DNA from: a virus
Direction: 5' to 3' (one strand)
Virus record (IMG/VR): IMGVR_UViG_3300042562_001768
Length of the DNA: 15,563 bases
Position numbers and translations under genes: made by a program. Positions 1 through 15,563 of the stretch are shown here, piece after piece; within the stretch, counting starts at the first letter, position 1, and every line of letters starts with the position of its first letter. The notes beneath the pieces were generated by a model, which was not told the origin of the DNA, did no database searches, and worked only from the letters and a program-made list of their open reading frames with translations.

Positions 1-127
1 GGGGGGGTGGGAGGTCTTTGGGGAGGTCATGCAAGCCATCGAACGGCACGATCCGCGAGCCCAGGGAGACCTGCCCGGACAGCGCCGCGTCGTGCGTCGG
101 CGCCTGGATGAACTCGGCATCAAGGAC
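1..127. repeat. Terminal direct repeat, copy 1; exact duplicate of 15437..15563 (circular-closure overlap or terminal redundancy)
   Basis: Read directly: the first 127 nt (ggggggg tgggaggtctttggggaggtcatgcaagcc ... ctcggcatcaaggac) recur exactly as the last 127 nt of the window. Confidence 0.9.
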
Positions 128-3674: not shown

Positions 3675-4796
3675 ATGAACCGTCTGTTCAAGCTCTTCGG
3701 CTTCAAGTCTGCACCGATGAATATCGGTTGGGACTCTCCGTCGAACTACGTCCGAGCAGACGTCGCGGCGCTGCCGTCCGTGCAGCGATGCATGAACCTG
3801 ATCGCGAACGATGTCGCGCGCTGCCCACTGGTGGTGCGCGACGCCGAGCAGATGATGGTCGAAGACTCGACGATCACCGCGCTCTTTACGAATGCGGCGC
3901 AGGCCGAGCTAAGCGGAACAGACTTCCGCCGATGGATGGCTTCGGAAGCGCTGCTGTCTGGCAACGCCTTCGCGCAGATCGTGACCGACTCGATGGGCCA
4001 GCCCGTCGCGTTGCGTCCGCTGGCGAGCTCAGCCGTCAGCCTGAACGAAGACAGTAACGGCGTGCTGCATTGGACCTACTCCGGCACCGAGATCGACTAC
4101 GCCTCGATGCTGCACTTCAAGGGTGCGCCGAGTCCAGGGAATCCGTACTGGGGCACAAGTGTCCTGAGCGCTGCGGCGACAAGCCTCGACGCAGTCGCGC
4201 AAACCGAAGCAGCCTGGAACGCATACACCCGGAGCGGCGGATACGGCAAGCTTGTCTTCAGTCATCCCGGCGCTCTCCAGCCTGCGACCCGCGACGCCAT
4301 GCGGACCGCCTTCATGTCGGGACACATGACTGCCGCCGCAGCGGGCACACCGATCTTCGTCGGCGAAGGGATGACCGTGACCGCGCTCTCGCCGTCGTGG
4401 GGCAAGGACATGATCGAGCTCCGCGCCGCGGGCGCGCGCGTGGTCGCGAACATGTTCGGCGTACCAGCCGCGTACCTCGACATGAGCGAGGCGCGCACGC
4501 AACCAGAGATCGCACAGTCGTACGTCTCGTCGTGCTTAGAAATCTGGGCCACGACCTGGGAAGCGGAGATCAGTAACAAGCTCTTGCGACCTGGTCTTCG
4601 TGTTCGTTGGGACTGGTCGCCTGTCTTGGAAGGAGACTTCCGAACCGCTGGCAAGGCGTACGGAAAGTTCGTCGAGGTCGGCGTGCTCAGTCCGAACGAC
4701 GTCCGCGTTCGCCTTGGCTACTCGCCGCTGCCTGGTCTCTGGGATCCGAGGCCAGTGATGAGTGGCATCACCATCGAATCGGACGGTCTGCAATGA
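3675..4796 (+). CDS. Portal protein (HK97-like family)
   Basis: 373-aa ORF directly between terminase and prohead protease; MNRLFKLFGFKSAPMNIGWDSPSNYV... First in-frame ATG after the terminase stop; the ORF-track start at 3288 lies inside terminase. No clear Shine-Dalgarno, so the start is uncertain (alternative ATG at 3717). Confidence 0.8.
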   Translation: MNRLFKLFGFKSAPMNIGWDSPSNYVRADVAALPSVQRCMNLIANDVARCPLVVRDAEQMMVEDSTITALFTNAAQAELSGTDFRRWMASEALLSGNAFAQIVTDSMGQPVALRPLASSAVSLNEDSNGVLHWTYSGTEIDYASMLHFKGAPSPGNPYWGTSVLSAAATSLDAVAQTEAAWNAYTRSGGYGKLVFSHPGALQPATRDAMRTAFMSGHMTAAAAGTPIFVGEGMTVTALSPSWGKDMIELRAAGARVVANMFGVPAAYLDMSEARTQPEIAQSYVSSCLEIWATTWEAEISNKLLRPGLRVRWDWSPVLEGDFRTAGKAYGKFVEVGVLSPNDVRVRLGYSPLPGLWDPRPVMSGITIESDGLQ

Positions 4797-6403
4797 TGCG
4801 AGAACTCCGCGCACAACTGGCACCGACTACCGACGGGACGGTCCGCGGATACGCGGCGCTGTTCGACTCTTGGTCGCTGCCGATCACCGAGCGCGGACGC
4901 ACGTTCCGCGAACGCATCAAGCCGGGCGCACTACAGCCGGACGGGAACGTCTCACTGTGGTGGATGCACGACCACACCGACCCACTCGCGAACACGCGCA
5001 GCGGATCGCTCACGATTACAGAGGACGCGAAGGGGATCGCATTCGTAGCCGACTTGGGTACGAGCGCGCGCGCGGACGAGATCCGCGACCTCATTCGCCG
5101 CGGGGTGGTCGACCAGATGTCGATCGGCTTCGTCGCACTCTCAGATATCTGGGACGGCAATACGTCCCGCACGATCACTAAGGCCACGCTCCATGAGGTG
5201 AGTTTGGTCGAATCGGCTGCGTACCCCGGTACGTCAGCAACCGTCCGCAACCACCAAAGGAAACCCGCTATGTCCGTCAAAGAAGATCGTGCTCGCATCG
5301 CCGAGCTCAACGCTGAATACAACACCGCTACCGATGAGCGTCAGTTCGCCATCATGGACGAAGTCGCAGAGTGTGAGGAGCGCATCGCTGGCGCCCAGGC
5401 TGCATTCACCAACCGCGCCGCCACACCGTTGGCAGTCGCACCGTCGGCACCGCTTGCCGTCGTTCGTCGCATCACGCCTCCAGTCCGTGACGAGCAGCGC
5501 GAGTGGTTCCGCACTGGCTTCAAGCAGAACCGATCCATCGGTCTGAGCGTGACGGGTGGCAACGCTACCGCCGGGCAAACTTTGCCGACCCTGAGCGGTG
5601 AGTTCATCAAGGCGCTCGACCAAGAGTCCGTGATGCGTAGCCTCGCAACCGTCGAGACCCGTGGACTCGATACCGATATCCAAGTGATCGGCACGCGCCA
5701 GACCGCTGTTCTGCTGGCAGAAAAGGCGGCGTACACATCGACCGACTTCACCGCGACCAAGCTCTCTTTCAAGAGCTACAAGTCCGGCGCGCTGACCGAC
5801 GTCACGGAAGAGGCCTTGCAGGACACCGTGTGGGATGTTGCGAGTCAGGTAGTCAGTGAACACGGTCGCGCTCACTCGCGACTCTGGGAGAACTACTACG
5901 TAAACGGTACCGGCACTTCCCAGCCGCAAGGCGCGTTTGCTGCGACCTGGACAACGACGTACACCACGGCGGCTGTTGGCTTGCCAACGGTGGCGGACTT
6001 GGTCACGGCTGCGTACAAGTTGCCAACCCCGTACCAGGCGAACGCGTCCTGGCTCATGCACTCAACTGTTTGGGCTGCGGTCGTCGGCAGTGCGGCCAGC
6101 GGCAAGTACCTCCTGAACGGTGAGAACGGGAACATCCTCAAGGACGGGGCCGTCGCTCTGTTCCTCGGCAAGCCTGTCTACCTCAGCGAGTGGGCACCAT
6201 CGGCAGCAACCGCTGCTACGGTGTCGTGCCTGTACGGTGACTTCAAGGCGGGCTACCGAATCATCGACCGCTCGATGCTGAGCTTCACCGTTGATGATGT
6301 GTCCCAGATGTCTAACGGACTCATCCGCTACACCAGTCGTATGCGCTCCGACGCCAAGGCCGTCGACGCGACCGCGATTGTCCCGGTCGTCATCAAGACC
6401 TGA
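4793..6403 (+). CDS. Prohead (capsid maturation) protease fused in frame to HK97-type major capsid protein; internal ribosome-binding site and ATG at 5270 may also give stand-alone capsid protein
   Basis: ATG at 4793 overlaps the portal stop (ATGA). The N-terminal ~159 aa (VRGYAALFDS...WWMHDHTD...VDQMSIGFVALSD...LHEVSLVESAAYPGT) match the HK97 prohead protease pattern. From MSVKEDRARIAELNAEY onward it is a coiled-coil delta region followed by a capsid-protein-like body ending ...DATAIVPVVIKT. No stop codon separates the two parts. AAGGA at 5257-5261 precedes the in-frame ATG at 5270. Confidence 0.85.
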   Translation: MMRELRAQLAPTTDGTVRGYAALFDSWSLPITERGRTFRERIKPGALQPDGNVSLWWMHDHTDPLANTRSGSLTITEDAKGIAFVADLGTSARADEIRDLIRRGVVDQMSIGFVALSDIWDGNTSRTITKATLHEVSLVESAAYPGTSATVRNHQRKPAMSVKEDRARIAELNAEYNTATDERQFAIMDEVAECEERIAGAQAAFTNRAATPLAVAPSAPLAVVRRITPPVRDEQREWFRTGFKQNRSIGLSVTGGNATAGQTLPTLSGEFIKALDQESVMRSLATVETRGLDTDIQVIGTRQTAVLLAEKAAYTSTDFTATKLSFKSYKSGALTDVTEEALQDTVWDVASQVVSEHGRAHSRLWENYYVNGTGTSQPQGAFAATWTTTYTTAAVGLPTVADLVTAAYKLPTPYQANASWLMHSTVWAAVVGSAASGKYLLNGENGNILKDGAVALFLGKPVYLSEWAPSAATAATVSCLYGDFKAGYRIIDRSMLSFTVDDVSQMSNGLIRYTSRMRSDAKAVDATAIVPVVIKT

Positions 6404-8890: not shown

Positions 8891-9063
8891 TGCCACACCT
8901 AGACGCCGACGCCGCACTCGCAAGCGAGCACACCACGCTGGAGCGGATCGAGTACCTACTCGCCACGCTTGCCTGCGCGATGACTGGCCAGGCGCCACAG
9001 CAGTTGCTGCCGTGGCGTCGGCGTGGCATCGAGGACTTCATGGGGCGCATCAATGGCCAATGA
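8890..9063 (+). CDS. Small ORF (57 aa) in the -1 frame relative to the upstream chaperone candidate; possible second chaperone ORF
   Basis: My translation is MPHLDADAALASEHTTLERIEYLLATLACAMTGQAPQQLLPWRRRGIEDFMGRINGQ, with ATG at 8890 (TGATG overlap) and stop TGA at 9061-9063. Not in the ORF track (below length cutoff). No canonical slippery heptamer seen upstream. Confidence 0.3.
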   Translation: MPHLDADAALASEHTTLERIEYLLATLACAMTGQAPQQLLPWRRRGIEDFMGRINGQ

Positions 9064-9661
9064 GTTCAAGTCAGTCCTCACCCTGACCGCGGACAGTTCC
9101 GGCGTCACCGCCGGAGTTAACCAGGCGATGCAGTCCCTCAACAAGTTGCAAGGCGGGATGTCCGCGCTGACATCGCTCGCGGGCGTCGGCTTTGCCATCG
9201 GCATTGGCAAGCAACTCTTCGGCGCAGCCACCGACGAGATGGCACGGATCAAAGACCTCGCGCACTCCTTCAGTCCGGAAGGGATGCGCGGCGCCAACGC
9301 CATGAACATGGCGACCCAGCAGGCGGACATGGCTATCGGCAAGGCGTTCGGTCCGATCGTGGAAGCGATCGACCAGGCATCCGTCGCAGCGATCAAGGAA
9401 CTGACCACGTTCATCATCGAGCACAAGGACGAGATCGGGATGGCGATGATCTATCTGACCGAGGTCACGCACGTGGCAGCAATGGCTATGGCAGAGTTCC
9501 TCGTCGGTCTGGGCAAGACCGTCGAGTGGCTGCATAACTTCATGGACAATCCACTACAGGCGACCGCCCAACTCGCTGGCGATGTTGCGATGCAGGCCAG
9601 TGGCGCCAACCTCGTCATCGGTATCTATGACCTCCTCAAACAGAAATTGGGTGGCACATGA
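9053..9661 (+). CDS. Tape measure protein candidate, unusually short (~202 aa)
   Basis: Ala/Gly/Met-rich, apparently helical protein with a hydrophobic segment ALTSLAGVGFAIGIGKQLFGAA, at the tape-measure position after the chaperone-like ORFs. ATG at 9053; an alternative GTG lies at 9023. Confidence 0.45.
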   Translation: MANEFKSVLTLTADSSGVTAGVNQAMQSLNKLQGGMSALTSLAGVGFAIGIGKQLFGAATDEMARIKDLAHSFSPEGMRGANAMNMATQQADMAIGKAFGPIVEAIDQASVAAIKELTTFIIEHKDEIGMAMIYLTEVTHVAAMAMAEFLVGLGKTVEWLHNFMDNPLQATAQLAGDVAMQASGANLVIGIYDLLKQKLGGT

Positions 9662-10611
9662 CCGCGAAGCTCATCGAGATCCCATCAAGCGATACCGTCG
9701 AGATGGCGATGCCTGGCGAGGAGATGAGTTGGACGCAGCACTTCCGCTACGTCTCAAACGCCGCCAAGCTCACCGCGTGGGATGTGCTCGGCGACACCGC
9801 CACTGGCGTACCGCAGCAGGGTTCAAGATACCCAGCCACGCCGTCGACCAACTGGAAGTGCAACTTCGTCGCGCGCAGTGTGACAGCGACACCCGTACCA
9901 CAAGCGGCTGCGGGGTGCGCCTTCGACGTCCGAGTGAAGTGGACCGGGCGCGCGGCGCAGGATCCGACGCGTCCGTACTTCAAGATCACGCGCTCGACCT
10001 CGACGCGCAGTCATGGCTTCTACCGCACAGGCGACATGTTCACGATCACGCAGGCAAACGGCAGCGAGCCCTTCCCGCCAGTCCAGGACATGGGCGGGGT
10101 AAAGAGTGACACCAACGGTCAGCCGATTGTGATGCCGATCTACCAGCAGCAGATCCAGGTCGACATGCTCTGGGACCGAAGCCGGGACAACGCCAGCTCG
10201 CTTGGCTTTACGGCATCGCCTGACCCGCCGATGAACTGGTACGACAACTACTGCCTCACACGGAACTCCGTGCCGTTCCTCGGTTGGCCGATCGGATACG
10301 TCACCTACCTCGGATGGAGTCTGAACCCGTCACCGGACGAGGTGTGCGTTTTATCGCATCGCTTCCTGGCGGACGATTTCCAGTTCTGTGAGCAGCGCCC
10401 GCTACCGAATCAAAGCGGCAAACCGTTCTTAGCGGCGGGTCTGACCTGGGGCGGAACGGCTAGCACACCAGCCGTAACCGTGCAATCCCAGGCGTACGTC
10501 TTCTGGTACCAACCGTTCCAGACTCTTGTCGACTACTCCACGCTCTTCACCATCCGTCCGAATCTGTGGACGGCGATCAACACTCCGAAGCCAGCGTGGC
10601 CGTCGCCATGA
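9658..10611 (+). CDS. Minor tail protein (distal tail / baseplate candidate)
   Basis: 317-aa ORF, ATG overlapping the upstream stop (ATGA). Trp/Tyr/Pro-rich. Position after the tape-measure candidate. No specific motif recognised. Confidence 0.5.
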   Translation: MTAKLIEIPSSDTVEMAMPGEEMSWTQHFRYVSNAAKLTAWDVLGDTATGVPQQGSRYPATPSTNWKCNFVARSVTATPVPQAAAGCAFDVRVKWTGRAAQDPTRPYFKITRSTSTRSHGFYRTGDMFTITQANGSEPFPPVQDMGGVKSDTNGQPIVMPIYQQQIQVDMLWDRSRDNASSLGFTASPDPPMNWYDNYCLTRNSVPFLGWPIGYVTYLGWSLNPSPDEVCVLSHRFLADDFQFCEQRPLPNQSGKPFLAAGLTWGGTASTPAVTVQSQAYVFWYQPFQTLVDYSTLFTIRPNLWTAINTPKPAWPSP

Positions 10612-11111
10612 CGTACGAATGGCCGATCTTTACCGAAGGGCTTTACGGCAAGGCGAACGCCTCGGTGTGCAACGCCTGGACGCAATCGGCGCGCATCGTG
10701 CTATCAAGCGCGGAGGCGCTCGACTGGGCGAACCGAACGAAAGACGGTATGGACCAGCCCGATCGGTGGCTTGCGAAGGTCACGGGCGCAGCAGTCATCA
10801 GCAGTAATCGCTGGTCGTACACCTTTGTGCCTGTCATTATCTCCGGCACGACTACCGCGAACCTATCCGGCACTGGCCAGGCTGGCTCCGGCGCCTTGAA
10901 CTTGCGCGAGATGAACAACACCACAATCCTCGCGGATGGTTCGCCGCTCGCGAGTGGCGTGACCATCGGTCCCGTCGGCTCCACCTGGGGCGGATCGAGT
11001 TGGTCTACGAGTTCGCTGACTGGAATCGTCGAGATGAACGTCGAACATAAAGCCGACGGCAGCGTCGCGTATTGGTTTTCCTCACCGAACCCTGGGAGAT
11101 GTGCAACATGA
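10608..11111 (+). CDS. Minor tail protein, Gly/Ser/Thr-rich
   Basis: 167 aa from ATG 10608 (ATGA overlap); the ORF-track start at 10566 lies inside the previous gene. Low-complexity GTTTANLSGTGQAGSG and SSWSTSS segments are typical of fibre-like proteins. Confidence 0.5.
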   Translation: MTYEWPIFTEGLYGKANASVCNAWTQSARIVLSSAEALDWANRTKDGMDQPDRWLAKVTGAAVISSNRWSYTFVPVIISGTTTANLSGTGQAGSGALNLREMNNTTILADGSPLASGVTIGPVGSTWGGSSWSTSSLTGIVEMNVEHKADGSVAYWFSSPNPGRCAT

Positions 11112-12415
11112 AATACGACGTAATCCGGTCATACTGGCCAGCTCCGATCTACGACACGCCTCTTCCTGCTGGCGTTTATGGCAGTATGCGGGCGTTCAAC
11201 TTCATACGGGAAACCACTACCAAAGGGCTAGACGTAGCAATCGTTGGAGACAGCAACACGGGCTACAACGCTCCGAACGATGGCGGTTACGTTCAAGGCA
11301 TTTCCTATGGTTTGGATGTTGCGTTCCCTTCAAATGCTTACGCCACCGCTACGTTTACGCTGATGAACGAAGGGAACTCTGCTGGCTACAAGTGCTCAAT
11401 GCAAGGCGCATCACTGGCCAGCGCACCGGGTGGCTACGTTTCGGGAAAAGCGAGCGGCGACGCGGGTATTAAAACTTTCTTTGACCGTGGTAGTGGAAGT
11501 TGGAGTGATGCGGGCGGCGCGAACGCAGGGACGTACACGGATTTCCCATGGCTTGAATCGGGAAATCAAACCGAGAACATTAACCGTGGTATGACAATCG
11601 ACTCAGATCACCCCATCGGCGTAAACAACGCGCTCCGATATAGAGTCCTGCGGAGTCAGACCACAACGGGCGGCAGTTTCTATATGCGCGTTCGTCTGAA
11701 TGGTGGCTCATATGCACCGATTGCCACATCGGCTTCGATCCCTTGCAGTGGCGCAACTAATCTAGTTGCATCAGAACTACCGATCACTGTTGGCACTCGC
11801 AATCTGTCCTTGGCTTCATTCTGGAGCATCCAAAACGCAGTTGGTCTTTACACGGTCGGCCCGTGGGGCGGTTTGTTGCAATCGATGTACCGCCCAACAG
11901 TTGGTTGGGCAGTGGATGCGATGTATTTCATGGGTGGTGCAACCATCACCGCCATCGATACAGACTTCGCCGCAGCAAACACCGCTGGGTATCTCACCGC
12001 CACCATGCTTGCCGAGTATTACAACCGACAACTAGCGGCGGGTGGGGATGGTCGCATCGTTGTTTGGATTCAAGGCGGAGCCAACCAAAGCGACTGGACA
12101 TCGAGTCCAAGCACATGGCCAGCAAAGTGGGAATCCATTATGAATTACGTCCGCACAGCAGCCACATACGCCGCCATACCTTCGGAGAAGTTGGCATTCG
12201 TTGCGATGTGTACGCATGACATCACGGGTTATGACTTTGCTTCTAGGCGAGCCGCGCTCATCGCATTGACTACTGCAAACCCTGATCTAACGGTAGTCAA
12301 CATTCCGGAGATTATTCCGTTTGCTTCTTACTCTGCCTATGCAAGCGGAGCGCACTTGTCTAAGACCGGATACCAAACGATTGGCAATGCCATTATTCAA
12401 CGGATGCTTTCTTGA
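11108..12415 (+). CDS. SGNH/GDSL-like hydrolase (esterase/deacetylase-like) protein, tail-associated or lysis enzyme
   Basis: 435 aa from ATG 11108 (ATGA overlap). Block-I-like VAIVGDSNTGYNA near the N-terminus and a block-V-like ASGAHLSKTGYQTIGNAI near the C-terminus, with a long Gly/Ser/Thr-rich insert between. The Asp three residues before the His is not conserved (SGAH), so catalytic integrity is uncertain. G+C visibly lower than the head genes. Confidence 0.45.
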   Translation: MKYDVIRSYWPAPIYDTPLPAGVYGSMRAFNFIRETTTKGLDVAIVGDSNTGYNAPNDGGYVQGISYGLDVAFPSNAYATATFTLMNEGNSAGYKCSMQGASLASAPGGYVSGKASGDAGIKTFFDRGSGSWSDAGGANAGTYTDFPWLESGNQTENINRGMTIDSDHPIGVNNALRYRVLRSQTTTGGSFYMRVRLNGGSYAPIATSASIPCSGATNLVASELPITVGTRNLSLASFWSIQNAVGLYTVGPWGGLLQSMYRPTVGWAVDAMYFMGGATITAIDTDFAAANTAGYLTATMLAEYYNRQLAAGGDGRIVVWIQGGANQSDWTSSPSTWPAKWESIMNYVRTAATYAAIPSEKLAFVAMCTHDITGYDFASRRAALIALTTANPDLTVVNIPEIIPFASYSAYASGAHLSKTGYQTIGNAIIQRMLS

Positions 12416-12714
12416 TCCACCTAGCGGTCGTCATCCTCACGTTCCTCCTGTCAGCCTGTGCATCGAGCACGGCGCAGATCGCGCACGCAGCCAACGCGTC
12501 CCGCGTCTCGGTCGGCGCCGCGCGCGGACACCTGGTCGCCGCCAGCGCGGAGCTCGACCAGATAGAGGCTCAATGCCAGGTGGTGAGCGAGCAGATCCCG
12601 TACGTCTCTGATGATGTGCCGAGCTACATGTCGGTTCTTCAGTACGCCAGTGTTGCCGTCGTCGTCTTCGTCGTTGGCAGTCTCATCTACACCTACATAC
12701 CGCGGAAGAAATGA
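12412..12714 (+). CDS. Membrane protein with N-terminal lipoprotein-type signal (lipobox LSAC) and C-terminal transmembrane helix; lysis-associated candidate
   Basis: TTG start overlapping the upstream stop (TTGA). MIHLAVVILTFLLSAC ASST... has a hydrophobic h-region followed by L-S-A-C. The C-terminus ASVAVVVFVVGSLIYTYI PRKK is a hydrophobic helix with a basic tail. No in-frame ATG near the N-terminus, so the start is uncertain. Confidence 0.4.
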   Translation: MIHLAVVILTFLLSACASSTAQIAHAANASRVSVGAARGHLVAASAELDQIEAQCQVVSEQIPYVSDDVPSYMSVLQYASVAVVVFVVGSLIYTYIPRKK

Positions 12715-12839
12715 TGCTGACCCAAACTCAATATCTGATATGGCTCGTTGCGATTCTCGTCACGACAGCGGCTGCGGGGTGCCGAGTTGGCGCCACTTGG
12801 TCGACCTTCAAACATCAAACAAAAAAGGCTCGCAAATGA
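12711..12839 (+). CDS. Small single-pass membrane protein (42 aa), holin-like candidate
   Basis: My translation is MMLTQTQYLIWLVAILVTTAAAGCRVGATWSTFKHQTKKARK: one hydrophobic helix and a basic C-terminus. ATG overlaps the upstream stop and the next start overlaps its stop. Below the ORF-track length cutoff. Confidence 0.3.
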   Translation: MMLTQTQYLIWLVAILVTTAAAGCRVGATWSTFKHQTKKARK

Positions 12840-12949
12840 TTACGCAAGCAGACCTCTCCAGTACCCTCGGCTCAATTTTCTTCGCGACCAGTCTCGGATT
12901 CGTGGGCTTGATACTTGGTTACATCCTGTGCCGCCGGGCAAGCAAATGA
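12836..12949 (+). CDS. Small single-pass membrane protein (37 aa), holin-like candidate
   Basis: MITQADLSSTLGSIFFATSLGFVGLILGYILCRRASK, the C-terminal part of ORF-track ORF 12611..12949, whose N-terminus overlaps the previous genes. ATGA overlaps at both ends. Confidence 0.3.
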   Translation: MITQADLSSTLGSIFFATSLGFVGLILGYILCRRASK

Positions 12950-13707
12950 GTCTGCTTCGGTGTTGCTGCGGTAGCGCAACCTGTGCATCCTGTCCATCGT
13001 TACCAGGCGACTGGTCGACGCGGGACTATCGTTTGTTCATACCAGCAGTCAAGCCTGTTGGATATGGTCGCGCGAGTTCAGTGCCGAGCGGTCTATACAC
13101 CGGGCCCTGCACGCCAGCGGATCCGTACTGGAACTTGGCAGAGTGTGCATTCGACTTTACCACTGGCTCGCTGTACTACGTCTATTCTCGACTCGCAAAC
13201 TGCGAGCCCTTTCCAGAAGCTTGCGGCGAAGTCTTAAAGTTCCCGCGGGAGATCGGTGGCTTCTATACGGACAACCTTGTCCCGTCGATTACGTTCTCTA
13301 CGCAGATTGCCACGCGCACATACAACCAAACAGGCGACGTTTCATATTTCATCCAGGCGGACGTATCGCGATGCTGGGGCGGATGGGCTGGGTGTGAGAG
13401 TTGCACCAACCGAACCAAGGTCAGCCTCTACTACTTTTTTGGCAACAACTTCACATACAACGACAACTGCACAAACCATCCTGCTGGTGTTACAAAGACT
13501 GTGGAGCTGGAGTATCTCTCGAATCCTTACGCCGCAAGTGAAGGCATCGGAAAAACTTGCTACCTCAGAACCTGGAAAGTGAGCCCTGGGCCGACAGCCT
13601 TCTGCTACCCGGAAACAGGTCAATATGGCTGCGCTGATCCTTGCGTCCTTGGATCGTGTTCGTTCTTTGGATCAAGCAACTTTCCCTCAACGGTAACAAT
13701 CGTATGA
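12946..13707 (+). CDS. Cysteine-rich protein (18 Cys in 253 aa), unknown function
   Basis: ATG at 12946 overlaps the upstream stop (ATGA); the ORF-track start at 12748 is an upstream extension. N-terminal MSLLRCCCGSATCASC cluster and Cys spread through an aromatic/Asn/Thr-rich body. G+C at third codon positions visibly lower than the head genes. Confidence 0.6.
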   Translation: MSLLRCCCGSATCASCPSLPGDWSTRDYRLFIPAVKPVGYGRASSVPSGLYTGPCTPADPYWNLAECAFDFTTGSLYYVYSRLANCEPFPEACGEVLKFPREIGGFYTDNLVPSITFSTQIATRTYNQTGDVSYFIQADVSRCWGGWAGCESCTNRTKVSLYYFFGNNFTYNDNCTNHPAGVTKTVELEYLSNPYAASEGIGKTCYLRTWKVSPGPTAFCYPETGQYGCADPCVLGSCSFFGSSNFPSTVTIV

Positions 13708-13910
13708 AGATCCCAGGACAGATTGAGGCGTCGGAACATCAACCGCCCGCGCGCATAGGTCTCGGCGACGCCGTGGCAGCAGCCACAAAGGCTGTCGGGG
13801 TCAAGCCTTGCGGCGGATGTGCCAAGCGCCAGGCGGCGATGAACCGGGCGACGCCAGCCTGGGCGCGGCGGGCGCTTGGTTGGTGGTCGCGGCATTTCGG
13901 TGTACCGTGA
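13704..13910 (+). CDS. Small protein (68 aa) with a GDAVAAATKAVGVKPCGGCAKRQAAMNR motif
   Basis: ATG at 13704 overlaps the upstream stop (ATGA). The CxxC-containing segment looks like a conserved small-protein motif, but I cannot name the family. Confidence 0.45.
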   Translation: MKIPGQIEASEHQPPARIGLGDAVAAATKAVGVKPCGGCAKRQAAMNRATPAWARRALGWWSRHFGVP

Positions 13911-13914
13911 CCAC

Positions 13915-14220
13915 ATGTCCACAATCCGTCAAGCTCTTCGGGGAGTCGATCGCCGCCGCGATGAGTGGTGGATGGTTCGGCGCGACTCGGACCCGCCAGG
14001 GGTCTGGGCTTTGACGCTCGATCCGAGTGCCGGGGACTGGGACTGGCGCGTCCGCGCAGTGACCAATATGCCTTTCATGAAGCGGCGCATAGCCTCGGCA
14101 AAGATTCTCTCCGATAAGCAGGGAAGATTACTTGAATTGCGACGAATGGTCGATAGGATGCGCGGCGCGATGGTGGCGCGGGGGGATGACGCGGCTGCGA
14201 GGACTCCGAGTGGAGTTTAA
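13915..14220 (+). CDS. Hypothetical protein (101 aa)
   Basis: First ATG after the upstream stop; MSTIRQALRGVDRRRDEWWMVRRDSDPPGVW... No Shine-Dalgarno seen. The 3' half is AT-richer and contains promoter-like hexamers, so the coding assignment is tentative. Confidence 0.4.
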   Translation: MSTIRQALRGVDRRRDEWWMVRRDSDPPGVWALTLDPSAGDWDWRVRAVTNMPFMKRRIASAKILSDKQGRLLELRRMVDRMRGAMVARGDDAAARTPSGV

Positions 14221-14274
14221 CGTAACAGCCATAGCCGCGTCTCCCGATGGTCACCTCGCGCGGGAGATTCGCGC

Positions 14275-15027
14275 ATGGATGGCATCACGAAGCTTGCTGC
14301 GGCACTGGTCGCAGCCCAGAAGGATCTGACAAACCCCAAGTTTGATAAGCAGAATCCGCACTATCACAGTAAGTACGCATCACTGGCAGGCATTATCGAC
14401 ACGGTCCGCCCGGCGCTCTTAAAGCACGGACTGGCGGTGGTGCAACCGATCGAAACGGGGACCACATCCGGGACGATTCAGGTCCACACGATCCTGATCC
14501 ACACCTCCGGCGAGTCGATCAAGTCGACCCAGTCGGCACCGGCCCCAGGCGACCCGCAAAAGTTGGGCAGCCTGGTCACGTACTTGCGCCGCTATGGACT
14601 GTCTGCGCTGCTCATGCTGGCAGGGGACGACGACGACGATGCGAACGCCGCCGCGGCACCAACGCAGAAGACCCAGCAAACGCTTGAGCGCCACGTAGAG
14701 GCGTCCGCAGCGCTCTCCGGTGTCGAGAGAGCCATCGCAACCGCAGCCGCTCCTAGGGCATCCAAGGCGCCCGCGCGCGCTGCCGCCGCGAAGGGCATCC
14801 GAGTCGACGCAACGGTGAGCAAGATCGAGGAGCGCACCTCGGCGGCTGGCAAGGAGTACGCATGGATCCACACCGAGGACGCGGGGCGCCTCACATCGTT
14901 TGACAACATCGACGGGATGTCGGTCGGCGCGCGGTACACGTTCCTCCTCCGGAACGACCGCGACGGCAACCCGACGATCGTGGACGACTTCAGCGCTTGC
15001 GTCTCCGACGAGGAGATCCCATTCTGA
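14275..15027 (+). CDS. erf: ERF-family single-strand annealing protein (recombinase)
   Basis: N-terminal NPKFDKQNPHYHSKYASLAGIIDTVRPALLKHGLAVVQ, then DPQKLGSLVTYLRRYGLSALLMLAGDDDDD, which resembles the conserved core of ERF proteins. GGGAG Shine-Dalgarno 8 nt upstream of the ATG. Confidence 0.75.
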   Translation: MDGITKLAAALVAAQKDLTNPKFDKQNPHYHSKYASLAGIIDTVRPALLKHGLAVVQPIETGTTSGTIQVHTILIHTSGESIKSTQSAPAPGDPQKLGSLVTYLRRYGLSALLMLAGDDDDDANAAAAPTQKTQQTLERHVEASAALSGVERAIATAAAPRASKAPARAAAAKGIRVDATVSKIEERTSAAGKEYAWIHTEDAGRLTSFDNIDGMSVGARYTFLLRNDRDGNPTIVDDFSACVSDEEIPF

Positions 15028-15563
15028 TGCGCGTCGCCAAGCAACACATCCACATGGGAGAGATCTTCCGCTGCTCCGGACTTGCTCCGATGCAGCGTTA
15101 CCTACTCATGGCAATAGCCGATTACGGGCTCCCCGCCTGGCCGTCCCAGGCGCGCCTCGCAAACAAAACTGGACTCTCGCGATCCAGCATCAACACGATG
15201 GTGTCAGAGTTACGTCGCCTCGGCGTCCTTACGACGGAAGGTCGGGGCAAGTCTTTGACCTATCGAATTGACCTGTCTGGGAAGGGTGAGGTGTCGTCCG
15301 CAGCGACACCTCACCTGTCGTCCACAGCGACACCACCTGTCGTCCACAGCGACAGCAGGTGTCGCCCACAGCGACAGGGATCAGAACTCTCCAAGGAACT
15401 CTCCAATGAACCCTCCCAGTCCGCGGTGGAAACCGCGGGGGGGTGGGAGGTCTTTGGGGAGGTCATGCAAGCCATCGAACGGCACGATCCGCGAGCCCAG
15501 GGAGACCTGCCCGGACAGCGCCGCGTCGTGCGTCGGCGCCTGGATGAACTCGGCATCAAGGAC
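15027..15563 (+). CDS. Winged-helix DNA-binding protein, putative replication initiator with embedded iterons; truncated by the window edge and completed by 2..280 (229 aa in total)
   Basis: ATG at 15027 (TGATG overlap with erf stop). N-terminus MQRYLLMAIADYGLPAWPSQARLANKTGLSRSSINTMVSELRRLGVLTTEG is HTH-like. The frame is open to the window end and continues through the duplicated 127 nt. The Ser/Thr/Pro-rich linker is encoded by the iteron array. Confidence 0.65.
   Translation, partial: MRVAKQHIHMGEIFRCSGLAPMQRYLLMAIADYGLPAWPSQARLANKTGLSRSSINTMVSELRRLGVLTTEGRGKSLTYRIDLSGKGEVSSAATPHLSSTATPPVVHSDSRCRPQRQGSELSKELSNEPSQSAVETAGGWEVFGEVMQAIERHDPRAQGDLPGQRRVVRRRLDELGIKD
15285..15376. promoter_or_regulatory. 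Array of four 17-bp palindromic iteron-like repeats (tgtcgYccRcagcgaca), candidate origin of replication or operator
   Basis: Units at 15292-15308, 15316-15332, 15338-15354 and 15360-15376, spaced 24/22/22 bp. Each is an inverted repeat tgtcg-N7-cgaca. The first is extended to 12-bp arms (ggtgaggtgtcg / cgacacctcacc, 15285-15315). Followed by an AT-richer 11-bp direct repeat gaactctccaa x2 at 15384-15406. Confidence 0.55.

Follow-up and report, generated by a model that had tools for sequence, protein, structure and literature searches.

The late region of this small tailed phage is best explained, with moderate confidence, as two exchangeable host-interaction cassettes, the genes g19 and g22, which flank a conserved trio of membrane-protein genes that is the likely lysis apparatus; no standard endolysin appears to be hidden between positions 11108 and 13707 of the window. 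The window is the whole 15,563-nucleotide stretch that was analysed, IMG/VR record IMGVR_UViG_3300042562_001768. An earlier sequence-only reading had found no recognisable endolysin in this interval, had considered that lysis might take an unusual route, and had named an SGNH-like protein (g19) and a Cys-rich protein (g22) as possible atypical lysis factors. The missing standard enzyme and the possible unusual route are borne out, since the complete genome yields no match to a muralytic catalytic domain. Both named candidates, on the other hand, look unlike lysis enzymes.

A 127-bp exact direct repeat at both window ends, together with two other metagenome contigs that are circular permutations of the window, shows that the genome is complete, circular and 15,436 bp long, so missing lysin or integrase genes are no edge effect. 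Pfam was run on the called plus-strand ORFs, three long minus-strand ORFs and the ORF spanning the window ends, and PHROGs and NCBIfam covered most of the same set; none of these searches found a lysozyme, amidase, transglycosylase or cell-wall peptidase domain in the scanned ORFs. Family profiles of g17, g18, g22 and the gp10-like protein likewise gave no muralytic match among PDB sequences, and the sole peptidase in the genome is an S78 prohead protease fused to the capsid protein. The AT-richer character of the interval, also remarked on earlier, is a codon-level effect, with GC3 of 0.54 in g19, 0.54 in g20b, 0.63 in g21 and 0.59 in g22 against 0.73-0.85 in the structural genes. From g17 through g23, successive stop and start codons overlap.

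The first cassette, A, consists of g19 (11108..12415, plus strand), whose 435-aa product would be an exchangeable receptor-binding tail fibre with an SGNH/GDSL-type esterase carrying a ~230-aa insert. This assignment draws on conserved sequence blocks, body exchange and homologue context, and shares the moderate confidence of the overall reading. The N-terminal 17-residue adaptor MKYDVIRSYWPAPIYDT (11108..11158, plus strand) marks the upstream boundary of the cassette. It is identical in the relative L011, whose other 414 residues are unrelated, and DNA homology to L103, L102 and L106 stops at window positions 11157, 11158 and 11151, respectively. Even in relatives about 94% identical in DNA, the first 17 residues are kept and the body is unrelated. 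The slot lies after the tail-tip genes and combines a conserved N-terminal anchor with an exchangeable distal part.

The SGNH motifs are present, and blocks I, III and V are conserved across a nine-member family: G47-D48-S49, G324-x-N326-x-x-D329 and H416. Block I, with the nucleophile Ser, is conserved in all members covering the region, and G324, N326, D329 and H416 are invariant, while the block V Asp occurs in P0009 only. One of the nine homologues matches Lipase_GDSL_2 (E=4.8e-5), and another family member carries an N-terminal tail-tube-like domain (Phage_TTP_11, 5.9e-6); g19 itself has no Pfam match and no significant GDSL profile match. Its profile weakly matches an acylhydrolase in the PDB (E=1.9), and its best Foldseek match, from a weak model (pLDDT 54), is the CE2 carbohydrate esterase 2waa (E=6e-3). 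Homologues occur after the tape-measure and tip genes in L003, a second siphovirus, and beside tube/nozzle genes in L005, a T7-like phage; none was found in 50,697 GenBank phage records. Like phage SGNH-type receptor-binding esterases, such as the O-antigen deacetylase tailspike gp63.1 of G7C, and like CE2 esterases, g19 has Ser-Gly-Asn-His block motifs and combines a beta domain with a predicted esterase; as with the phage fibres, its gene occupies the tail module's fibre slot and is swapped as a unit. It differs from them in the long insert, which falls between blocks I and III, in the lack of a block V Asp in most family members, and in having no direct GDSL profile match. At adsorption, the esterase would most likely strip acyl groups from surface polysaccharide.

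Downstream of g19, the membrane-protein cluster noticed earlier is confirmed as three genes. The first, g20 (12412..12714, plus strand, 100 aa), starts at a TTG that overlaps the g19 stop and encodes a lipoprotein of u-spanin architecture: an LSAC lipobox (Cys16), an Ala-rich middle and, at the C-terminus, a transmembrane helix. All family members examined keep the lipobox Cys and this helix. Their lipoboxes read LSAC, SSGC, LAGC or LTGC, the Cys being invariant and position +2 never Asp, as suits an outer-membrane lipoprotein signal, and the 17-residue hydrophobic window at residues 80-96 has equivalents in all homologues. The family comprises more than 165 clusters, all of about 100 aa and on contigs of at most ~17 kb; against NCBIfam, g20 gives weak lipoprotein matches. 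Read by its composition, the middle of the protein is helical.

The other two members are single-pass membrane proteins, each small and with one transmembrane segment and a charged C-terminus by hydropathy and charge analysis. The g20b product (12711..12839, plus strand, 42 aa) has an invariant Cys at the helix end and a +5 C-terminal tail; its gene shows ATGA overlaps at both ends and is conserved in L006, L008, L009, L014, L016, L125 and others. It is absent from public annotation. The g21 product (12836..12949, plus strand, 37 aa) is acidic at its N-terminus and basic in its tail; its helix is Gly-rich and one Cys is invariant. As many as 71 related loci have a g21-like gene. The lipobox, transmembrane segments and basic tails of the trio are kept even where the relatives' g22 is only 30% identical.

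Beyond g22 lies g23 (13704..13910, plus strand), encoding a 68-aa protein that carries a G-L-G-D...K-P-C-G-G-C motif and whose C-terminus is basic and amphipathic. It matches phrog_32048 (E=1.5e-6), a function-unknown PHROG, and its homologue comes next after the CCC-head gene, the counterpart of g22, in every relative inspected. It forms the downstream flank of the second cassette, B, where homology to L103 resumes at 13758. Like g20b, g23 is missing from public annotation. A large clade of phages with 15-17 kb genomes, drawn mainly from lake-type metagenome assemblies, keeps the trio and g23. More than 100 complete or partial genomes of this size share the late-operon membrane module and have no detectable wall hydrolase, and the module is present in all capsid relatives with a locus extending into the region.

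With the same moderate confidence, the trio and g23 can be taken as the most likely lysis apparatus, judging from gene sequence and order. The trio qualifies because it is conserved and is placed between the fibre and the integrase/early genes, as lysis cassettes are; the position between fibre and integrase is seen in L009. In this apparatus, g20b and g21 would permeabilise the inner membrane as holins, and g20 would couple the inner and outer membranes as a spanin. The unimolecular spanin gp11 of phage T1 is a lipobox lipoprotein with a C-terminal transmembrane helix and about 80 beta-rich residues between them (Kongari et al. 2018, PMC6139136). In g20, the N-terminal lipobox signal, the C-terminal helix and the neighbouring small, holin-like membrane-protein genes of a late operon recall gp11. 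It differs in having ~60 rather than ~80 residues between lipid anchor and helix, in looking Ala-rich and helical rather than beta-rich, in not being homologous (hhalign probability 8%), and in having no endolysin partner in the genome.

Similarly, g20b and g21 resemble holins and the lysis proteins of small ssRNA and ssDNA phages in being tiny and single-pass, with highly basic C-termini, and in lying in a post-tail cassette. They are shorter than typical holins at 37-46 residues, are always paired, and both have an invariant juxtamembrane Cys. No trio member significantly matches a holin or spanin family (best PHROG E-values 0.07-0.4); for g20b and g21, the best PHROG holin match is E=0.073 in 1 of 14 sequences, and no endolysin gene adjoins. 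It also counts against a lysis role for the trio that, mechanistically, a spanin has little point where no endolysin is present, and that the only clues to the host, and through it to the envelope type, are two binned MAG labels (Planctomycetota and Sandaracinus).

Cassette B is g22 (12946..13707, plus strand), whose start overlaps the g21 stop and whose 253-aa product begins with the head MSLLRCCCG (12946-12972), followed by an exchangeable body. The Cys-rich protein picked out earlier is real, with 18 Cys invariant among close homologues. In 68 of the 71 related loci, the slot directly after g21 holds a CC-head ORF with the start M-S-[RK]3-C-C-C, and the complete CCC-head proteins fall into at least 10 mutually unrelated body clusters with 4-11% cysteine and no Pfam domain in any of them. 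Recombination boundaries lie precisely after head codon 9, and the body is exchanged between genomes ~94% identical.

The predicted fold of g22 is confident and beta-rich; it has no structural neighbour and no likeness to any muralytic fold, and no Asp, Glu, His or Ser is invariant in the g22 family. Variable cysteines in g22 are gained and lost in pairs, as covariation shows, although total Cys counts in CCC-head proteins have no even-number bias (29 odd, 26 even). The confident beta-rich fold and the paired cysteines suggest that g22 is probably disulfide-stabilised, which in turn would probably place its action outside the cytoplasm. The likely places are the periplasm, the virion or the cell surface, and its role there would probably be binding or an effector function, not conventional hydrolysis; the conserved head would tie it to the membrane trio. 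The slot can thus be viewed, again with moderate confidence, as an exchangeable host-interaction cassette. As in phage tail fibres and bacterial polymorphic toxins, a short N-terminal head is joined to swapped, unrelated bodies, and recombination occurs at a fixed boundary with conserved genes flanking. The CCC-head proteins differ from these in a head of only ~8 residues (polybasic plus Cys-Cys-Cys), in Cys-rich bodies without a known domain or fold, and in having no recognisable immunity gene or tail-attachment domain.

This architecture, in which a late-operon protein joins a short conserved N-terminus to an exchangeable body without homology, matches that of g19, and the CCC-head proteins might instead be a second virion-borne receptor-binding or host-range protein, with the MS-RRR-CCC head as an attachment or assembly signal and lysis a separate matter. 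Their bodies are acidic, Gly/Pro/Ser/Thr-rich, beta-rich and without membrane segments, and the probable disulfide stabilisation of the g22 family would suit extracellular proteins; moreover, the g22 and g19 bodies vary independently among near-identical genomes. Three membrane-protein genes nevertheless separate the CCC-head gene from the tail genes, and the gene is always coupled to g21 and then to g23. The head is also far more conserved than the tail-tip proteins on which it would dock, remaining unchanged where g17 falls to 22-30% identity. A second receptor-binding protein is accordingly a minor, though real, possibility.

The clade-wide lack of a detectable lysin, set beside a trio that is always kept, also accommodates lysis by phages that encode no muralytic enzyme at all. 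One or more of the small membrane proteins or lipoproteins would then block wall synthesis, in the manner of the single-gene lysis proteins of small ssDNA and ssRNA phages, or, like colicin lysis lipoproteins, trigger host autolysins or an envelope phospholipase, a scheme that fits the strong size economy of 15-17 kb genomes. The lysis proteins of ssRNA phages can be as short as ~37 residues, and colicin lysis proteins are lipoproteins of ~45 residues. We know of no tailed dsDNA phage shown to lyse without a muralytic enzyme, however, the evidence is negative and comes from sequence profiles, and the spanin-like architecture of g20 normally implies earlier wall degradation. Enzyme-free lysis is therefore rather unlikely.

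A new, non-canonical class of endolysin made up of g22 and the other CCC-head proteins would restore a wall-degrading effector to the preferred membrane module. It would stay reduced in the cytoplasm, pass through a lesion made by g20b and g21, and be activated by oxidation in the periplasm. Thiol-controlled endolysins exist, P1 Lyz among them, and the paired cysteines suggest an oxidising compartment. In addition, g22 is the sole soluble protein of more than 100 aa inside the membrane module, occupies the usual endolysin position directly overlapping g21, and has no detectable competitor as lysin. The same findings that count against g22 as an atypical lysis factor of the kind first proposed make this idea doubtful: each of the at least 10 unrelated bodies would need to be a new muralytic enzyme, the family has neither an invariant residue of catalytic type nor a muralytic fold, and body exchange between nearly identical genomes is typical of host-range determinants, not of housekeeping lysins.

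It is equally improbable that a standard endolysin or virion-associated lysin, too divergent for profiles, lies in g17, g18, the C-terminal half of the gp10-like protein or g24. Pfam often misses metagenomic phage lysins, these four proteins are conserved across the clade, and g17 and g18 have invariant acidic residues (D151 and D239, and E101). Against this stand the empty Pfam, PHROGs and NCBIfam searches, the equally empty comparison of g17, g18 and gp10-like family profiles with PDB sequences, and the tail-tip and neck positions that the candidates occupy. The last idea, that g19 lyses the cell from within as a peptidoglycan O-acetyl esterase or lipase, is very improbable. No other protein in the interval looks like an enzyme, g19 weakly matches PatB in Foldseek, and peptidoglycan O-acetyl esterases are found among the SGNH enzymes that have an inserted beta domain. 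Unrelated non-esterase fibres, however, replace g19 in ~94% identical genomes and across the clade, its homologues in other phage types belong to clusters of tail or virion structural genes, and an esterase cannot cut the glycan or peptide backbone.

Returning to the two-cassette reading, a wider proposal can be put forward tentatively: that small tailed dsDNA phages of a widespread clade lyse their hosts without a classical peptidoglycan hydrolase, through a cysteine-themed envelope module. This module would comprise a lipoprotein-transmembrane bridge, two membrane proteins of ~40 residues that each have a juxtamembrane Cys, a very small CxxC protein, and an MS-RRR-CCC-head effector, polymorphic and probably disulfide-stabilised, that exchanges its body to suit the host envelope. 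To our knowledge, holin, endolysin and spanin are held to be universal for tailed phages of Gram-negative bacteria, and five small genes now make that universality experimentally testable. Whether they are lysis effectors, second receptor-binding proteins or envelope modifiers, the CCC-head proteins define a second hotspot of host interaction next to the tail fibre. They form a new polymorphic family, with an 8-residue head, at least 10 Cys-rich bodies and precise cassette exchange. One body already has a confident predicted fold without a known neighbour, and the family could supply new folds and binding specificities.

Claims about lifestyle fared less evenly. The plus strand is tiled with genes, and the complete window holds no gene with a Phage_integrase domain by Pfam, PHROGs or NCBIfam and no tblastn match to a relative's integrase, in agreement with the earlier reading. 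The reported absence of a repressor is correct in that no ORF matches a CI-type repressor family, but it overlooks a 229-aa winged-helix protein running from 15027 across the junction to 280 (HTH_36, 29.3 bits, cut-off 25; MarR_2, 28.9 bits, cut-off 27), a gene missed because the window cuts it. From these domain matches, this protein is as likely to be a replication initiator as a repressor. The suggestion of an obligately lytic phage is consequently weak: integrase is absent here, yet some relatives carry one, and L009 has a tyrosine integrase exactly between its CxxC gene (the g23 homologue) and ERF. By reading of the sequence, a small HTH-looking reverse-strand gene adjoins that integrase.

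The genome measures 15,436 bp and is either circular or circularly permuted. An assembly overlap accounts for the exact 127-bp direct repeat at the two ends of the window (1-127 and 15437-15563), and two independent metagenome contigs, L001 and L002, are circular permutations of the window. The repeat and the permuted contigs together establish a complete circular assembly, so claims of absence apply to the whole genome. Every gene lies on the + strand, and many are coupled by ATGA-type stop/start overlaps. Pfam identifies a PDDEXK nuclease, an HNH endonuclease, a large terminase, a portal, an S78 protease fused to an HK97-type capsid protein, head-tail connector, head-completion and gp10-like proteins, and an ERF recombinase, with weaker matches for a tail tube protein and an assembly chaperone. 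One 536-aa ORF (4793-6403) encodes both the S78 prohead protease and the HK97-type major capsid protein, which are separate genes in the more distant relatives L016 and L018. A 202-aa gene in the tape-measure position (9053-9661, +) would imply, by the usual rule of 0.15 nm per residue, an unusually short non-contractile tail of ~30 nm; the conserved genes after it, g17 (317 aa) and g18 (167 aa), are read as tail-tip genes from their position. Because the head, tail and fibre gene set is full, a helper-dependent satellite is unlikely. vB_KppS-Ant, the GenBank phage record with the best capsid match, lacks an annotated tail fibre or lysis gene, looks satellite-like and was set aside as a comparator. 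Among 50,697 GenBank phage records, megablast finds no nucleotide match to the whole window, and tblastn finds none for g19, g20, g22 or g23. Replication candidates are only the ERF, PDDEXK, HNH and winged-helix proteins; a DUF5906 primase/helicase-like protein in L006 (7317-8621) and L014 (8379-9686), and a metallophosphatase-looking protein, judged by motifs, in the 17-kb relatives L125 (13324-14205) and L137 (14865-15743), are not in the window. Scans for promoters and terminators in 10500-15563 stay at chance level.

No scanned ORF matches a lysozyme, transglycosylase, amidase or cell-wall peptidase family in Pfam, which covered all of them, or in PHROGs and NCBIfam, which covered most; the scan took in the called + strand ORFs, three long - strand ORFs and the ORF spanning the window ends. 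Searching PDB sequences with family profiles built for g17, g18, g22 and the gp10-like protein retrieves nothing, and no relative inspected has a Pfam-recognisable lysin. The sequence-only reading had seen no recognisable endolysin, integrase or repressor, and the ORF scans and PDB profile searches confirm the first of these for the complete genome. The absence of an integrase is likewise upheld, with tblastn of the window using a relative's integrase negative. For the repressor, the claim stands in that no CI-type family matches, and it is qualified by a 229-aa winged-helix protein across the window ends (15027-15563 continuing 128-280, +). This protein matches HTH_36 and MarR_2 above the curated cut-off and Phage_rep_O faintly, starts at an ATG at 15027 that overlaps the ERF stop by one base, and may act as a regulator or as a replication initiator. 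What looks like the first gene, ORF 29-280, is just the C-terminal portion of this protein, and in L001 too the public annotation calls the 83-aa part alone. The remark that 11108-13707 is AT-richer also holds, as a codon-level effect: GC3 is 0.54 in g19, 0.54 in g20b, 0.63 in g21 and 0.59 in g22, against 0.73-0.85 in structural genes. The published literature searched contains nothing relevant on endolysin-less tailed phages or Planctomycetes phages.

The SGNH-like protein g19 (11108-12415, +), once suspected as a lysis factor, is probably an esterase interrupted by a domain of ~230 residues. A G-D-S motif (Ser49), G324-x-N326-x-x-D329 and His416 are conserved across its nine-member family, one member of which matches Pfam Lipase_GDSL_2 (E=4.8e-5). 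Against PDB sequences, the g19 profile pairs its block V with an acylhydrolase, without significance (E=1.9). The best Foldseek match of its AlphaFold2 model is a CE2 carbohydrate esterase (E=6e-3); at pLDDT 54 the model does not allow the fold to be assigned firmly. Homologues sit among tail genes. In L003, a second siphovirus, the homologue lies downstream of the tape-measure gene and two tip genes and has an N-terminal tail-tube-like domain, and in L005, a T7-like phage, it adjoins tube and nozzle genes. The L005 homologue (491-1897) is 43% identical and lies just upstream of the podovirus tube/nozzle genes, so the esterase module moves between phage morphotypes.

The body of g19 is exchanged between close relatives. 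In L011, the product in this slot has the identical first 17 residues followed by an unrelated 414-residue body, and DNA homology with L103, L102 and L106, which are 84-95% identical to the window over structural genes, ends at 11151-11158 and restarts at 12413-12469. Jelly-roll-like or glycine-rich fibres occupy the slot in other relatives. Gene context and body exchange thus argue that g19 is not a lysis enzyme and that it behaves like a receptor-binding fibre, of an ordinary kind with a new sequence. Where the fibre cassette ends on its downstream side is not fixed, since the first 57 nt of g20 (12412-12468, the signal-peptide region) lie outside the L103 homology block and inside the L102 and L106 blocks. 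In relatives, small genes encoding 70-103 aa separate the fibre gene from g20 (L009 2512-2721, L013 947-1159, L016 9541-9786, L137 12252-12563); they seem to co-vary with fibre type and may be fibre-assembly factors; the window has no such gene after its esterase fibre.

The Cys-rich protein g22 (12946-13707, +), the other suspected lysis enzyme, also proves to be an exchangeable cassette, and no Asp, Glu, His or Ser is invariant in its 17-member alignment. Exhaustive profile searching of 1.84 billion representatives recovers only 13 family members, all orphans of ~215-290 aa except for two marginal matches of 110 and 847 aa; a scan of genome contigs with the family finds none. The AlphaFold2 model is confident and beta-rich (pLDDT 89.8, pTM 0.86). 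Variable cysteines are lost or gained in exact pairs (13/153, 55/93, 150/205, 229/238), each with its own phylogenetic depth. This is a disulfide signature, and g22 therefore probably works in an oxidising compartment, though it has no signal peptide.

Retrieval of 80 IMG/VR loci with g20 as a handle shows that the g22 slot is polymorphic. Of 71 loci with a g21-like gene, 68 have an ORF at or just after the g21 stop that begins M-S-[RKL]-[RK]-[RK]-C-C-C; the other three are contig ends. The 64 complete CCC-head proteins form 10 clusters without detectable similarity past the head, and a Pfam domain is found in none of the 10 representatives. The complete proteins range from 256 to 618 aa, are acidic and Gly/Pro/Ser/Thr-rich, with 10-44 Cys (median 7%), and nearly all lack a membrane-length hydrophobic segment; their total cysteine counts show no even-number bias. 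Homology between the window and L103, which elsewhere in the genome is ~94% identical, runs through 12469-12972 (to g22 codon 9), breaks, and restarts at 13758 within g23; with L106 the breaks fall at 12937/13764. The g22 body thus forms a second exchange cassette, with g21 and the head on its upstream side and g23 on its downstream side. It is independent of the fibre cassette: L011/L102 has a different fibre and an unchanged g22. The SGNH-like and Cys-rich proteins are exchangeable host-interaction cassettes, not housekeeping enzymes.

Three small membrane proteins lie between these cassettes. The first, g20 (12412-12714, +; 100 aa), combines a lipoprotein signal, whose lipobox Cys is invariant, with an Ala-rich middle part and a C-terminal transmembrane helix. 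A lipoprotein signal plus a C-terminal transmembrane helix is the defining architecture of unimolecular spanins (PMC6139136); g20 shares it, yet is shorter than T1 gp11 and not homologous to it, the hhalign alignment being limited to the lipobox region. Its family comprises at least 165 clusters, all ~100 aa and on contigs no longer than ~17 kb. A role in receptor-blocking superinfection exclusion, as played by lipoproteins of the T5 Llp or Cor type, is unlikely, because most of g20 is kept when the fibre body is swapped. The other two, g20b (12711-12839, +; 42 aa) and g21 (12836-12949, +; 37 aa), each cross the membrane once and have a basic C-terminal tail and an invariant Cys where the helix ends. 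An invariant lipobox-like A-[AS]-G-C in g20b recalls a true lipoprotein of the o-spanin/colicin-lysis-protein type, which its uncharged N-terminus and +5 C-tail disfavour; an N-out/C-in membrane helix is favoured from these features. None of the three significantly matches holin or spanin families. Downstream of g22, the conserved 68-aa g23 (13704-13910, +; phrog_32048, function unknown) has a G-L-G-D...K-P-C-G-G-C motif and a basic amphipathic tail.

These five genes (g20, g20b, g21, the CCC-head gene and g23) are retained in L014, whose g22 is 30% identical, in L125 and L137, and in the most divergent locus, L140, with a longer g20; they occur in every capsid relative (at least 58% identity) whose locus extends this far. 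L009 carries a tyrosine integrase, positioned exactly between its g23 homologue and ERF and adjoining a small reverse-strand gene with an HTH/excisionase-type product by eye. The module thus occupies the classical lysis-cassette position, from fibre to lysogeny/early genes. The obligately lytic lifestyle proposed earlier agrees with the window's lack of an integrase and not with the clade, which by its gene content includes temperate members. Relatives differ in this stretch through an insertion or deletion: L009 (4154-5633) has a reverse-strand membrane protein, the small HTH-looking protein and the integrase, L013 (2595-3316) has the membrane protein alone, and the window has neither set. 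Whole-genome relatives are binned in a Planctomycetota MAG and a Sandaracinus MAG, phage-contig binning being weak evidence of host, and a scan of genome contigs with the capsid yields one 4-kb contig, binned as Sandaracinus, with no prophage context. Planctomycetota and Sandaracinus have Gram-negative-type envelopes.

Among clade-wide genes, lysis-like properties are confined to g20, g20b and g21, possibly with g23. We give roughly even chances to a joint reading in which g19 would be a receptor-binding fibre bearing an esterase, the trio would form the membrane part of a lysis system (g20b and g21 holin-like, g20 spanin-like), and the CCC-head protein would be an extracytoplasmic binding or effector protein, probably disulfide-stabilised and tied to the trio via its head. 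The CCC-head protein may instead be a second virion host-range protein, a reading of limited likelihood; its body is exchanged as a fibre body is, and its head stays next to g21. For the wall-breaching step, one rather unlikely reading is that no phage muralytic enzyme acts at all; the empty searches across the clade speak for it. A CCC-head protein acting as a non-canonical effector is improbable as a true enzyme, given g22's lack of invariant Asp, Glu, His or Ser, and a very divergent lysin in g17, g18, the gp10-like protein or g24 is just as improbable, the family profiles of the first three having drawn no PDB match. The readings overlap in part. That the module is a new lysis mechanism is a tentative and rather unlikely proposal; the whole is a lysis or host-interaction module. 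The literature searched describes neither a conserved membrane trio with a polymorphic CCC-head cassette and a CxxC protein nor a whole clade in which no endolysin is recognisable. In identical contigs, public annotation leaves g20b, g23 and g24 uncalled; all three are conserved in relatives, and g24 (13915-14220, +), located before ERF, encodes a Trp-rich protein of ~100 aa with the pattern R..EWW..R.D.DP.G.W...DP...WDW.
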